A DNA stretch of 64,000 nt from a virus (taxonomy: Duplodnaviria; Caudoviricetes). The notes beneath the pieces were generated by a model, which worked only from the letters and a program-made list of their open reading frames with translations, was not told the DNA's origin and made no database searches. Shown here one piece after another: positions 21,487-26,271 of the stretch (position 1 is its first letter; each line of letters begins with the position of its first letter). The translations under genes were made by a program, and so were the position numbers. The DNA is taken from IMG/VR virus record IMGVR_UViG_3300048802_000015, positions 17,906 to 81,905 of that record; one strand, 5' to 3'.

Positions 21487-22217
21487 ACAGTCCTTGTTTT
21501 GGGTGAAAGGTACGGCAGCTTTTTGAAAGCCGCTATCGCGGTCGCAAGACCAGAAGCCGGAGGCCCAAGCTCACTGTGCACGCCCGCCACTGCATTCGCA
21601 TAGGCTTGCATGGCGTCGGCCAGTGCATTGATAGCTGTCTGTAAATTGTCGCCCTGCGGGACCGGGTGCTGGGCATCTGCGGCCCCGAGTTGGACCTGGT
21701 CCTGCTTTACCCAGATGCACGTCGGGCCAGCGGCGATCGATGCCTTGCCCTTTACGCAGCGCAGATCGAAGTCCGTCGTGGCCAGGTAGACCAGCCGGCG
21801 CTTGTTGTCGAAGATCGGAACCCCGGCGGCCATGGGCTGCTTGGCCGAGCGACTGTGCAGAATGTGGGTGATGACCGGGGTCATCAAATCCCCACCGGGG
21901 CACTCGACCAGCACCTGGTCGCCGGGGCGAATCGGGCCGATGTCGCTCGATTCGGCATCACCCTTGCTCCAGAGGGCCGTGACCATCTGCTCGAGCGGTT
22001 CGAGCTTGACGTCGCACTCCACGCCCTCGGGACCGTTCCAGATTGCGTGGGGGTCGTCGGGGTGGAACTCGCCCTGGTCGTCGATGGTCCCAACCGTGCC
22101 GCGGCTGCACCAGTAGCGGGTGTCCATACCGGGCGAGGCGATGCCTTCCCGAAGAGCACTCACGTCGATGCTGCCCACGACGCGCGTGCCGAAACGGTGG
22201 GCGGCAGAACGGCTCAA
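21483..22217 (-). CDS. Baseplate central spike (gpV/gp5/gp45-like)
   Basis: OB-fold-like N-terminus (GPIRPGDQVLVECPGGD), beta-helix then short His-containing tip; synteny. Confidence 0.75.
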   Translation of the reverse strand: MSRSAAHRFGTRVVGSIDVSALREGIASPGMDTRYWCSRGTVGTIDDQGEFHPDDPHAIWNGPEGVECDVKLEPLEQMVTALWSKGDAESSDIGPIRPGDQVLVECPGGDLMTPVITHILHSRSAKQPMAAGVPIFDNKRRLVYLATTDFDLRCVKGKASIAAGPTCIWVKQDQVQLGAADAQHPVPQGDNLQTAINALADAMQAYANAVAGVHSELGPPASGLATAIAAFKKLPYLSPKTRTV

Positions 22218-24460
22218 GGCTGCCCCTTCTGCGCCGCCAACTGCGCCTCGTCGGTAAGCTGCTTGGTCTTCTTGTCCGCGGCCGAGACCCGAATGTTCTT
22301 CTTGCCTCGCTTGGCCGGCTTGAGCTTGCGGCGGTCGTTCATGGCCTTGTCGTCGTCGCTCATACTGGCCGGGTCGTTGTCGGGCATGTAGTTGACCAGC
22401 TCCATCGTGGCCTTGAACCCATCCCCCTCCTCGGCCGAGCAGTGGGTCTTGATGGAGCGCACATAGAAAATGTCCGGCAGCTTGGCGGCGTCGTAGGCCC
22501 GCTGTATTCGCTGCGCCATCTGGTCGATCGCGGTCGTGTTGTTCTGCCCGTCGGTGCTGAGCCAGTTTCCCCAGCGTTCGCGCTGCTTCTCGATCAGCTC
22601 ACGGATGTTGCCGCCCTTGCTGCCGTAGAAGTCCGAAAGACTGGAGATGACTAGGTTGTCGTCCTTCTGGCTGGCCACCACTACCCGCACCGGGCTCCCC
22701 GAGCAGAGGCGCATCAAGTCCGGGTCGTCGTTCTCGCACTTGACCAGCGTCTGTGTACGCAAGCTGGCGTCCGGATCCATGTAGCTCGAAAGATCGTCGG
22801 TCTCCAGCTCGATCGAAAGCTCGGCCCGCGTGAGCTGATGGTAAATGGACACGGCCGCGTCTTCGAGCTGCTGCTGGTTCCGTACCCCCTGAAGTACGAA
22901 GGTGCGAACGATGTCGACCTTGCCCCCGCCCTTGGCCGTCTGTTTGCGCGACTTCCCCTTGGGCTTCCCGGTACCCTTGGCGGCGGCATGGATGTCCCCC
23001 TTCGTTGAGGGGAAGCGCGCCTTCATGACCCGCAAAGTGGCACTGGCGTCGGGATTGTAGGCCCTGACCTCAACCGCCGTGGGTCGCGTTCTGCCCATCT
23101 TTCGGCTGAGCTTCATCGACTTGATGTTGTGGCCCCAGACCATGAAACGAACGTCGCTGGTCCATCGCCCAGACTCGTCGCTGAACTCGCGCGTGAAGCG
23201 ATCCCGAGACCCACCGGCCACGCGAATGTGCGCGTCGGTGATGTCGTCCATGAAGCACTGGGGAGGACTGAGGAGCAGATAGTTGGCAATGTCGGTCTTC
23301 GACTGCCCGAAAGTGATGATCTTCTTTCCGCCGTCCTGCGAGCCAGTCAGTGCCGTTTGGGTGCCGTCGTTGTTGAACGATGCCGACGACAGTGCCGGCT
23401 GGTAGAGCGGCATGCACCCGCACAGTTCGCAAGCCTGCGTGATGAGATCCCAGATCGACATGCCGTCTGGGGTAACGGACTTGGACGGCATTGAAGCCTG
23501 CCCGCCCTGGGCACTGTCTCCGGTGCCATTTGGATCGACCTCGGCGGCCGGCGATTCGGATTGGATCGGAGGCTCTTGCCCCGGCTGCGCTCCGTTGGCA
23601 CGGTTGCGTGATTGGGCCGTCTGCAATGACCGAAGGAGATCCTTGCGTCCGAGCTTGGGTTCCTTGGCCGGGTCGGCGGCAAACCAAACCGCCTGGAAAG
23701 GATCCCCGCCAGCATCGCCTGCAGTCGGAGGGTACTGCGCCAGGATGCGGTTGATGTACGTGGTGAGGAACTCCTCGTCACCATGGATCCTGTAGGCCGG
23801 CGCGTGTGGGTTGATCTTGCCGTCGATCAGTACCGATTCATAGCTGCGGGCCTTGATGTGGATGGTCGCGACTGAATCGCTGTGCTCCATCTCGGGCATG
23901 TCCACGTAGCCATTGAAGCGGCGAATACAGGTCTTCGACGGGATAGCCTTCAGGTGCCAGTTGTCTGGCGTCCCAAAGTCGGCGGAACTGACCGTGCCGA
24001 GATAGCCCTCGACGCGGCACTCGCGAATGATCCGCGGGTCGAGCGGCATGTCGATGAACGGAAACGTCGCCGTCAGTTGGGCGGCCTCGCGAAAGCCGCG
24101 GTCTTCGATCTCCATCTCGGCCGGCACGGTCACGAACTGGACCGAGAAGTCATCCCCCGGCCCGTTCTTGTCCACGGCCGAGCCAGTGACTAGCTTGGCT
24201 TTCTGCTTTTCGAGCTTCGCGTTGGTAGCGCGCAGGGTGCCTGCCTTGCCCTTGCTGCGTGAGGTGCCCAGAACCGAGGCCACTTCCTCTTGGGCAATGG
24301 CGGTTTCGTTCGTGCTGATCTGGGCATCGATCGCCTTGGACGTGGTGTCGAAGGGGGAGTCGGTGGTCTGCGGCGTGGAGTTGTCGGCTGCTCCAAAATC
24401 TTCCAAGCGCACAAAAAGCCTAAGATACCAGCTCGGTCTATACATTCTCGATTCAGCCAT
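22214..24460 (-). CDS. Baseplate hub (gp27/gpD/gp44-like)
   Basis: RFNGYVD..., IHIKARSYESVLID, SIWDLITQACE; between LysM initiator and spike. Confidence 0.75.
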   Translation of the reverse strand: MAESRMYRPSWYLRLFVRLEDFGAADNSTPQTTDSPFDTTSKAIDAQISTNETAIAQEEVASVLGTSRSKGKAGTLRATNAKLEKQKAKLVTGSAVDKNGPGDDFSVQFVTVPAEMEIEDRGFREAAQLTATFPFIDMPLDPRIIRECRVEGYLGTVSSADFGTPDNWHLKAIPSKTCIRRFNGYVDMPEMEHSDSVATIHIKARSYESVLIDGKINPHAPAYRIHGDEEFLTTYINRILAQYPPTAGDAGGDPFQAVWFAADPAKEPKLGRKDLLRSLQTAQSRNRANGAQPGQEPPIQSESPAAEVDPNGTGDSAQGGQASMPSKSVTPDGMSIWDLITQACELCGCMPLYQPALSSASFNNDGTQTALTGSQDGGKKIITFGQSKTDIANYLLLSPPQCFMDDITDAHIRVAGGSRDRFTREFSDESGRWTSDVRFMVWGHNIKSMKLSRKMGRTRPTAVEVRAYNPDASATLRVMKARFPSTKGDIHAAAKGTGKPKGKSRKQTAKGGGKVDIVRTFVLQGVRNQQQLEDAAVSIYHQLTRAELSIELETDDLSSYMDPDASLRTQTLVKCENDDPDLMRLCSGSPVRVVVASQKDDNLVISSLSDFYGSKGGNIRELIEKQRERWGNWLSTDGQNNTTAIDQMAQRIQRAYDAAKLPDIFYVRSIKTHCSAEEGDGFKATMELVNYMPDNDPASMSDDDKAMNDRRKLKPAKRGKKNIRVSAADKKTKQLTDEAQLAAQKGQP

Positions 24461-24470
24461 GGAACACCTC

Positions 24471-24958
24471 GACAGAGGCAGGGCATAGCACCGTCTCCCC
24501 TCCTCCTCTCTGGGGACTCGGTAGGGTCCGCAGAAACGATAGGGATCGCGAGCGAGCTATCAGAGGCAGAGCGCGACTTCTGGCGAGCCACACTGGGGAC
24601 GATGTGTGTGGGTGCTTCTCGTCTTGCTCTTCGGGTGGGATCGCAAGCGATCCGCCCTGGCTGGTGAGTCCAGGCATGCGCCCCTCATAGCGCAGGCCCC
24701 GCCTTCTTCCACGGCCGGTGTGATCCGTGGCCCTCCGGGCGTTGGGACTGATAGGGCCGTCGCCCTGGTCCGCATTTCGTCTCCCGACGTTACTGCGCGA
24801 CTCCAGCCCGGCGTGAAAGCCGGAACAGCGCCCGAACCGGCGCCAGTAGCAGTCCTCTTGACGAGGACCCAGGCATGTGGGAAAGTCTTCATGTCTTGGT
24901 CGCGCTTGACAGCATAGCGCCCCGCCGGCCTCAAAGCTAGCGGGGCGTTCGGCTGTCT
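24471..24958 (-). ncRNA. Candidate large structured ncRNA, element A (homologous to 49660-50078)
   Basis: No credible ORF; many hairpins; six sequence blocks shared in order with element B; GACAG...CTGTC ends. Confidence 0.65.
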
Positions 24959-24969
24959 GGGCTACGCTA

Positions 24970-26271
24970 TCACCCACCCAAGCCTCCCGAGCTATTGGTC
25001 TGCGGCGCACCCCACAACGCGCTCATTGTTGCGGCGTAAGCTGTCGCATCCGGAATCAAGATCGGCGGTGCCCCCAGGTCGCTCGGTCCAGTTGGAGTCG
25101 CCGGCACTTCCGAGCTGTCAAGATCGTTGAACTCTGCGATCAACACCCACAACTCGCTGTTCCCATCGTAGTATTTCGCCGCCAAGTCGCGCAGGTCGGA
25201 GCCCGCCGGTGGCCTCACTTCTGCAATCACGATCGGCTGGGACTGGCTGGCCAGGATGGCGGCCTGCTGGGCGACCTTCTCGGACGTGAGGTCGACTGAC
25301 TCCAAGACGTCGAACTGCTGCCCCATACCATCGAGTTGGTCGAGCGGGTCGTCGGTCGGGAACAGCGCCAGCTTTGCCTGCTTGGCCTGCCGCCTGACGA
25401 ACAAGCCCGCGTCCACCCAATCCTGGCCCGTCAGCCCCTCGACTATTGGCCAGAGGCCACAGACGGCGTCGTAGGCGGCCCGCACGTTCATGCAAGACCC
25501 AACCACACGATCGCAAGCGCCCCGCACACGGTCGGCGACGTTGGCCGGTAGCTCGGCCCCGGATTGGATGACGTCGGTAGCCGTGTCGAGTACCGTCATG
25601 GCGTTGGCGAAGGCGCTCTGCGCATCGTCCAGGGCGTTGTTGACGGTCGCAAGCGCGCTGGTGCCGGCGCCGAGAATGCGGTAGGCCGACTCCTGCCAGC
25701 TCGAGATGTCCGTGGAGGTCTGCAGGAGCGAGTCGGACAGGAAACCGAATTCATCCGCCTTGGTGGCTATCGCCGAAGGTCCGGCCCCGAACGTGGGCGC
25801 CGTGGTCTGGAGGTCTTCGCCCCGCCACTCGAACTCGATGGTCCAGGGGATGATCTGCGGAATCTCAAACTTTGGATCGATGCTCTTGATGATGCCGCGG
25901 CGAACGATCGCCACGTCATTGAATCCCCCCGTCGCGCCCCCGCCCCACCTGACCTCGACCGGGAAGCCGCGATCGACCACGTACTCGATGCGCTTGACGA
26001 GCGCCCGGGCATTCCCATCACCCAGGGCGGCGTCGTACCAGACGCCCGTGATGGTGGTGTTCTCCTTCGTGGAGCCAAAGACCTGCTGGCTGCCTACCGG
26101 GTTGCCGGGGTAGTAAGTGGTCTTGCTCCGCATCTTGGTGGGGAACGAGACGCCCCTAAAGGGCAGCATGGTGCCGATGAGGTCGATCTGGGTCGTGCGG
26201 TCGGCGTCCCCGAGGTTGCCCTCCAGGAGCGTGATGGCGAACGCCGTGGCTTGGCTATCGGGCAGCGCCAT
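24970..26271 (-). CDS. Tail tube initiator/DNA-circularisation-type protein with C-terminal LysM-like domain
   Basis: N-terminal LPFRGVSF...TYYPG; C-terminal DLRDLAAKYYDG.SELWVLIAEFNDL. Confidence 0.8.
   Translation of the reverse strand: MALPDSQATAFAITLLEGNLGDADRTTQIDLIGTMLPFRGVSFPTKMRSKTTYYPGNPVGSQQVFGSTKENTTITGVWYDAALGDGNARALVKRIEYVVDRGFPVEVRWGGGATGGFNDVAIVRRGIIKSIDPKFEIPQIIPWTIEFEWRGEDLQTTAPTFGAGPSAIATKADEFGFLSDSLLQTSTDISSWQESAYRILGAGTSALATVNNALDDAQSAFANAMTVLDTATDVIQSGAELPANVADRVRGACDRVVGSCMNVRAAYDAVCGLWPIVEGLTGQDWVDAGLFVRRQAKQAKLALFPTDDPLDQLDGMGQQFDVLESVDLTSEKVAQQAAILASQSQPIVIAEVRPPAGSDLRDLAAKYYDGNSELWVLIAEFNDLDSSEVPATPTGPSDLGAPPILIPDATAYAATMSALWGAPQTNSSGGLGG

Follow-up and report, generated by a model that had tools for sequence, protein, structure and literature searches.

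The 64,000-nucleotide (nt) stretch analyzed here (the window) corresponds to positions 17906-81905 of an IMG/VR virus record 81.9 kb in length and carries two noncoding elements, A and B, whose surrounding genes all lie on the window minus strand. With moderate confidence, A and B are read as copies of a mobile cassette of ∼420-560 nt that lacks an open reading frame (ORF), is carried by phages of peat and soil, and has a large structured RNA as its selected product. The members are homologous, fold alike on one strand, have no reading frame in common, and occur in varied contexts. The family is previously undescribed, with A and B as anciently diverged members, and we rate it as a new class of element, all of whose members are metagenomic. 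A first-pass annotation of the window had proposed a novel, multi-copy, structured noncoding element with base pairing selected on one strand. This proposal stands, as no Rfam family was matched and covariation was found.

Homology of A and B and Identification of Further Members

In a plain comparison, A and B show significant similarity at their two ends only, over 73 nt at 68% identity and 38 nt at 82%. The shorter of these is the common 3′ block GGAGGAGGGGA..GCTATGCC, which had been noticed at the outset together with an identical 19-mer and hairpin at the 5′ ends; the latter pattern has 4 matches in the window compared with 0.3 expected. A model of covariance for the 198 nt at the 5′ end, termed R1, used A, its orthologue A2, and a further member, C, as its seed, with B excluded. 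R1 recovered B at 62.5 bits (E = 3.9e-18) with all helices in place. Because a model made without B recovers B, the homology of the two elements is real. Under the same model, the AAGACT..CCCAC region and the GTCAAG-capped stem, both listed earlier as shared, are homologous. The supposedly shared block CCAGCCAGGGC is not: it is H6 itself in B (49895-49907; Table 1) and lies ∼115 nt further 3′ in A (24654-24664), at non-homologous positions. No other pair of members is as distant as A and B, which are 53% identical though they reside in the same genome. The 5′ domain of B is 52%-58% identical to that of each other member, and the 5′ domains of the eight members are 52%-85% identical overall. 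No third copy was found with R1 in the whole 81.9-kb genome. A coding function was considered and rejected: no frame is common to A and B, there is no protein-level similarity, and the members differ by indels.

Since the G+C-rich sequence of A is open in several frames, a spurious translation of it could be used as a query against protein collections. This search retrieved the orthologue A2 (L249), which lies at A's own gene junction, and a three-sequence profile retrieved D (L255), E (L257/258), F (L256), and G (L259). The latter four, all outside the seed of R1, score 106-140 bits with it. A degenerate 19-mer scan of metagenome and genome collections yielded C (L026) as the sole true member among the matches listed, nearly all of which were chance G+C-rich hairpins. 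Exact-pattern scans of IMG/VR gave no member, and blastn against 50,697 phage records gave no match. Two further candidates were discarded. The 18-mer GACAGCCGAACGCCCCGC occurs in an unrelated viral contig (L003 2365-2414), where it makes up one half of a hairpin resembling a terminator on the opposite strand, with ∼3 occurrences expected by chance, and R1 applied to 300 sampled genomes from two phyla gave one partial 22-bit match, in a G+C-rich stretch, that was judged to be chance.

The stretch was found in DNA runs of 17 studies, mostly of peat or permafrost. Contigs from peat and lake runs match positions 24771-24862 only and then diverge; these core-only contigs point to still more members. 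Parts of A had no coverage among the contigs compared, and this gap was given no weight. A lake-water contig joins 24511 to 24698, omitting 186 nt (24512-24697) of the 3′ domain of A. The supporting side of this joint is 27 nt only and it was not relied on; it could represent a shorter variant or another member. Near D, a 59-amino-acid (aa) ORF (L255 1282-1461) is 56% identical to the frame at genome positions 72831-72995, and because of this match the phage of D is regarded as a distant relative of the present phage, with the cassette at another locus.

A Covarying Fold in the 5′ Domain

The fold of the 5′ domain was assessed in an alignment of all eight members, which was fitted to R1 and is hence biased toward the model, with B, D, E, F, and G outside the seed. 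The 47 pairs of its eight helices are 90.5% paired, compared with 30%-50% when the partners are slid. Changes on both sides were seen in 24 of the 47 pairs, and the observed values were reached in none of 500 shuffles. There are 36 G.U cells and 8 A.C cells, and this excess of G.U places the fold on the gene-sense strand of this genome.

The domain begins with a long imperfect hairpin, H1, in whose basal part (H1a) the 5′ GACAGC has a local partner, GCUGUC (24908-24913), 45 nt downstream, with both-side changes in five of the six pairs. In H1b, four of seven pairs change on both sides. This local pairing takes the place of the closing stem proposed in the first-pass annotation, in which the 5′ GACAG was joined to a terminal CTGTC and would have brought the upstream stop codon next to the downstream ribosome binding site (RBS). 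Neither A2 nor any of D-G has the terminal CTGTC, and the juxtaposition is unsupported. H1 is followed by a five-way junction, the closing helix of which, Px, reads GCGCGAC/GUCGCGC in A, GUGCGA/UCGCGC in C, and GUGGA/UUCAC in B. The 16-nt block AACGUCGGGAGACGAA, centered on H6, is identical in seven of the eight members; B has GCCC-AGCCA-GGGC as its H6 instead and retains all four pairs. Complementarity between the conserved CUUGAY at the apex of H1 and the H3 loop extends to 87.5% of cells, compared with 11%-49% when slid, and CUUGAY and the GUCAA of H3 are put forward as a candidate kissing contact.

The 3′ Domain

The 3′ half is alignable within subfamilies only. Between A and A2, the 75 pairs predicted by alifold include 8 with both-side and 8 with one-side changes, counts that are biased because the structure was picked by alifold. 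The three "extra hairpins" of the first-pass annotation do show compensatory changes in A2, and the alifold structure of the 3′ half in D and E has 12 both-side changes. The order CAGAG, hairpin, UAGCAGC, and terminal CCC-AGAGA-GGG hairpin is common to all members. The CAGAG-hairpin-UAGCAGC motifs of A recur in B, D, E, F, and G, and a CCC..GGG hairpin with an AGAGA-type loop is present in D, E, and G.

Genomic Context and Mobility

As first proposed, A is preceded on the gene strand by a 433-aa ORF with its stop at 24970 and followed by a 748-aa ORF that starts at 24460, but the conserved 3′ end of A is at ∼24482, in GCUAUGCC, and not at 24471. Compared with A2, conservation spans CCCAGA through G[CG]UAUG[CU]CC. 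A and A2 together with both flanking genes form a single alignment of 82% identity across 3.4 kb, and because element and flanks align as one, the element at this locus is inherited vertically. In L004/L005, where the flanks are 71%-75% identical, the alignment breaks precisely across the element. The 95-nt spacer found there retains the GGGG..GCUAUGUCC tail along with ∼26 nt from the 5′ end and reads as the remnant of an internal deletion.

E provides a third state of this junction. On one side its neighbor is a 420-aa ORF, a 67.5% homologue of the 433-aa ORF on the strand opposite to E, and its other side opens with MPEPRHY, which resembles the N-termini of the 748-aa ORF family. On the strength of these two neighbors, E lies at the same junction as A in inverted orientation. 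E belongs, unlike A, to the D/E subfamily and retains 40 of the 47 pairs. It is flanked by a 23-nt direct repeat (L257 68-90 and 623-645) with 20 of 23 matches, a value reached in none of 300 shuffles. In operon orientation, one copy of the repeat directly follows the stop codon of the 420-aa ORF, and the other precedes the next gene start by ∼44 nt. Except in E, direct repeats between the element ends were not above shuffles.

Relatives whose TerL-like protein is 88%, 83%, and 78% identical to that next to B are without B. TerL ends at the same residue in these relatives and the next gene follows ∼30 nt past it; since that gene is found at the contig ends in the present genome, the module boundary occupied by B is a rearranged one. 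Most of the genes next to C-G are related neither to the window nor to each other, and at six loci the element starts 2-10 nt past a stop codon. Taken together, the contexts, the three states of the A junction, the repeat around E, and the distance between A and B point to repeated independent insertion followed by long retention, not to recent transposition. Mobility had also been suggested in the first-pass annotation, where it was based on 5-bp terminal inverted repeats, GACAG/CTGTC. These are not conserved in A2 and D-G, and the case for mobility instead comes from the varied contexts, both orientations at one junction, the remnant consisting of ends only, and the 23-nt repeat of E.

Proposed Mechanism

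The cassette would insert into very short intergenic spacers, usually 2-10 nt past a stop codon, and would move between loci and between phages. Once settled, it can pass down vertically, as with A and A2, disappear through a deletion inside it, as in L004/L005, or be replaced. The 5′ domain of its RNA comprises the H1 hairpin, the five-way junction with its candidate H1-H3 kiss, and then the GNRA-capped hairpin in the 16-nt block; the 3′ domain comprises variable hairpins, the closing CCC-AGAGA-GGG hairpin, and a short tail. The element is presumably transcribed. As the covarying fold includes H1, transcription of sense copies would be by read-through from upstream, and the antisense E would need a promoter of its own, for which the consensus scans gave no candidate. 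We infer that the RNA acts as a stand-alone molecule, in trans or for the spread of the cassette, and does not regulate one neighboring gene. A weak promoter-like TTGACT-17-TAnnnT in H1 was below the scan threshold and was rejected, since complementarity to the H3 loop explains this sequence better and a promoter there is incompatible with H1 as part of the covarying fold.

Several observations weigh against a mobile cassette with an RNA product. G.T wobbles are tolerated in single-stranded DNA too, and part of the structure may have a role as single-stranded DNA. The kissing-loop pairs show no covariation, because one side is invariant. The continuous 82% alignment of A and A2 represents vertical descent at that locus rather than recent movement, and E alone has a flanking repeat, those at the other six members being at shuffle level. 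No sigma-70-type promoter or intrinsic terminator was found at the consensus level (0 sites in either region). No RNA run is among the public runs in which the stretch is listed, a blank given no weight. Eight members of the family are known, seven of them full length, all metagenomic.

Alternative Explanations

The size and complexity of the fold, its invariant unpaired nucleotides, and its GNRA loop would suit an ORF-less, self-splicing or self-processing intron-like ribozyme that cuts the polycistronic transcript and spreads by homing or reverse splicing. The copies are mostly in sense, and H1a covaries strongly, like a P1-type exon or guide helix. With ORF-less phage group I and II introns and IStrons, the element shares a large conserved fold, mostly sense placement, and insertion polymorphism among relatives. 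Scans against Rfam 15, the check that the first-pass annotation had suggested, matched no known family at the gathering threshold or under permissive settings, group I and II introns and HEARO included. The group I model RF00028 gave nothing at E <= 10 in the whole genome and permissive scans of the regions were blank as well. In H1a, no conserved U.G pair of the kind found at a group I 5′ splice site was seen. A likeness of GAGACGAAAUGCGG to group I P7/J7-3 was dropped: CGUC-GGGA-GACG is a local hairpin there, and RF00028 is blank. For group II, neither the Domain V/VI models in Rfam (RF00029) nor the D1-D4 models matched, and the element starts with CCCAGA, not GUGYG. The copies interrupt no gene; they are all intergenic, so that splicing would not be selected, and L004 has separate genes at the A junction. 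Unlike exon sequence, the 5′ leader ahead of H1 shows conservation from locus to locus. E lies antisense relative to its operon, and the 23-nt duplication around E is not a homing product. An intron-like ribozyme is thus considered unlikely. We are similarly doubtful of a catalytic or self-propagating class of RNA, in which the RNA of an ORF-less cassette itself mediates processing or insertion, although this would explain the invariant core, the junction hotspot occupied in both orientations, and the absence of a partner gene.

There is a comparably small chance that the element is a non-autonomous transposon mobilized in trans. H1 and the terminal hairpin would then be DNA ends recognized by a transposase and the RNA would be a scaffold like a guide RNA, as in ORF-less copies of HEARO/omega-RNA or in palindrome-associated transposable elements (PATEs). 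Hairpins at both ends, a feature of IS200/IS605-type PATEs, are present, and the copies are without ORFs, at varied loci and in both orientations; the constant tetranucleotide expected upstream, 5′ of the element, is lacking. Neither HEARO nor the IS605-orfB RNA, nor any IscB/TnpB omega-RNA, was matched in Rfam, and the neighbors are structural genes, TerL, or small ORFs. The putative TnpB region of this genome (9-14 kb) has no similarity to the ends of A and B, and R1 finds no match there. Copies in the same genome are 53% identical, which argues against recent transposition. The family is also unlike miniature inverted-repeat transposable elements (MITEs), with no conserved terminal inverted repeats and no target-site duplication at every copy. 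MPME1 and MPME2 of mycobacteriophages are ∼440-nt inserts between genes, with 11-bp inverted repeats and a small ORF, and their copies are nearly identical. The present family resembles MITEs and MPMEs as inserts of ∼440 nt between phage genes that are missing from close relatives. It differs in having no inverted repeats and no ORF and in being 52%-85% identical with compensatory changes. To HEARO/IscB omega-RNA and PATEs (PMC10055086) it is alike as a structured RNA on a mobile element with scattered ORF-less copies and hairpins near both ends. It lacks an Rfam HEARO match, an adjacent IscB or TnpB, and a conserved target motif, and is about twice the typical scaffold size.

An element that acts in cis on its operon, be it a processive antiterminator, an mRNA stabilizer or processing site after the stop codon, or a translation-coupling device, would agree with the starts shortly past stop codons at six loci and with the position of A and B ∼25 kb apart in one long same-strand block of genes. 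The put RNAs of HK022 are two diverged copies of a cis-acting antiterminator, ∼70 nt long and promoter proximal. A and B likewise form a pair of diverged RNA copies of similar structure in one phage, on the transcribed strand of long operons; the present element, in contrast, measures 420-560 nt, is found in variable contexts, and has one antisense copy. A Shine-Dalgarno (SD)-like GGAGGAGGGG and a mini-ORF that ends on the start of the 748-aa ORF in A and A2 would also fit a cis-acting role, but this SD-like block is absent from D-G. The neighboring genes are without a common function, relatives at the same locus have no element or its ends only, E is antisense, and G precedes convergent genes downstream. 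A cis-acting function therefore seems improbable, more so than a ribozyme or a trans-mobilized transposon. A nonfunctional spacer or decayed gene with chance hairpins in G+C-rich DNA, for which only the weak single-sequence fold z-scores (-2.2 for A and -0.45 for B) would speak, is effectively refuted by the covariation, by cross-detection with the covariance model, and by the near-invariance of the 16-nt block in members whose 5′ domains are 52%-85% identical.

Comparison with Other Large RNAs

The mobile cassette favored here has its nearest analogues, by size, complexity, and carriage by phages, in GOLLD and ROOL (PMC5737381, PMC12286853) and in ORF-less copies of HEARO/omega-RNA (PMC10055086). 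GOLLD and ROOL are large, ornate noncoding RNAs that are often found in phages and prophages (Weinberg et al., 2017, PMC5737381; cryo-electron microscopy, PMC12286853). Like them, the present RNA exceeds 400 nt, has many helices and no ORF, is carried by phages, and is defined by covariation. It matches no Rfam model (those of GOLLD, ROOL, OLE, and raiA had no hit, whether at the gathering threshold or with E <= 1-10) and lies inside operons right after stop codons rather than near transfer RNA (tRNA) clusters. ARAGORN finds 0 tRNA or transfer-messenger RNA genes in the window. To our knowledge, few RNAs of more than 400 nt have a conserved multi-way junction, and nearly all earlier ones are ribozymes, guide-RNA scaffolds, or RNA-only assemblies. 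The present RNA is carried by uncultured peat phages with no protein partner in view and acts, on the favored reading, as a movable cassette. The functioning covariance model, the eight members, and the defined helices make it ready for mutation, probing, and self-cleavage work, and one gene junction in sense, antisense, and remnant states offers a direct natural comparison. The way in which A2 was found illustrates that spurious ORF calls over G+C-rich noncoding RNA can retrieve homologues from protein databases.

Location, Extent, and Flanking Genes

Table 1. Positions of the elements, their helices, and adjacent genes in the window
Feature	Position	Strand	Remarks
Element A, conserved extent	24482..24963	-	~482 nt; 5′ domain, 3′ domain, and tail; R1 match 24766-24963, 234 bits
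H1, long imperfect hairpin	24908..24957	-	H1a 24952-24957/24908-24913; H1b 24940-24947/24918-24925; apical UUUGA 24931-24935
Five-way junction	24795..24905	-	closed by Px, 24899-24905/24795-24801
Junction helices	H2 24878-24891; H3 24851-24869; H4 24826-24845; H5 24807-24824	-	H3 with invariant GUCAA loop
H6, CGUC-GGGA-GACG	24778..24789	-	center of 16-nt block AACGUCGGGAGACGAA
A 3′ domain	24517..24777	-	helices H7-H12 and UAGC motif
3′ helices H7-H10	H7 24753-24766; H8 24709-24730; H9 24672-24704; H10 24661-24673	-	
3′ helices H11-H12 and motif	H11 24638-24653; H12 24588-24611; UAGC motif 24552-24561	-	
Terminal hairpin UCCCC-AGAGAGGAGGA-GGGGA	24496-24516	-	shared with B, A2, and the L004 remnant
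Tail GCUAUGCC	24482-24489	-	shared with B, A2, and the L004 remnant
Downstream flank of A, outside the family	24461..24481	-	small hairpin CCUC-UGUC-GAGG containing the RBS of the 748-aa ORF
Upstream 433-aa ORF ("LysM")	24970..26271	-	stop 6 nt before A
Downstream 748-aa ORF ("hub")	22214..24460	-	ATG at 24460; identity 68% in L004/L005, 88% in L249
Element B	49671..50083	-	~413 nt; most diverged member; R1 62.5 bits, E 3.9e-18, B absent from model
B 5′ domain	49883-50083	-	H3 49968-49991; H4 49943-49961; H5 49926-49939; H6 49895-49907
B 3′ parts	UAGCAG 49736-49745; terminal hairpin 49688-49706; tail 49671-49678	-	
TerL-ATPase-like ORF, 329 aa	50094..51083	-	phrog_38 (large-terminase ATPase part), E 1.7e-34; stop precedes B

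The genes on either side of A had been named LysM and hub, names for which there is no basis in Pfam or PHROGs: neither the 433-aa nor the 748-aa ORF has a match at E <= 1e-3. The 433-aa ORF is 89% identical at the amino-acid level in L249 and 67.5% in L257. As the ORF upstream of this pair has a weak tape-measure match, a tail or baseplate position of the genes is plausible. The small hairpin in the downstream flank of A differs in sequence in A2, yet a CUCC/GGAG hairpin there likewise contains the RBS.

In A, A2, and L004, an ORF of 9-13 codons ends in a TGA overlapping the 748-aa ORF start (ATGnnTGA or GTGnnTGA; window 24461-24500, minus strand; L249 2590-2640; L004 3960-4010). In A and A2 it lies downstream of the strong SD-like GGAGGAGGGG, and the mini-ORF of L004 is without that SD. 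B has a 7-codon ORF after the same SD-like block. The block and the short ORF may constitute a translational coupling device.

B begins ∼10-15 nt past the stop of the TerL-ATPase-like ORF. An 87-codon frame (window 49008-49271, minus strand) has the look of an XRE-type helix-turn-helix (..GQREFSRRSGVSIRELARIE..) and underlies a longer plus-strand ORF (49051-49545) that is probably spurious. The gene that comes after TerL in relatives is here divided between the two contig ends (genome 223-480 and 81213-81617), and the distance between its halves exceeds expectation by ∼350 nt. Either the record is a permuted circle or it has a terminal repeat, and there may be a further insertion between the gene halves. 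A 457-aa homologue of the TerL-ATPase-like ORF (P0021), 91% identical to it, includes a LAGLIDADG_3 domain (PF14528), which suggests an intein or a homing-endonuclease insertion in the terminase of a relative.
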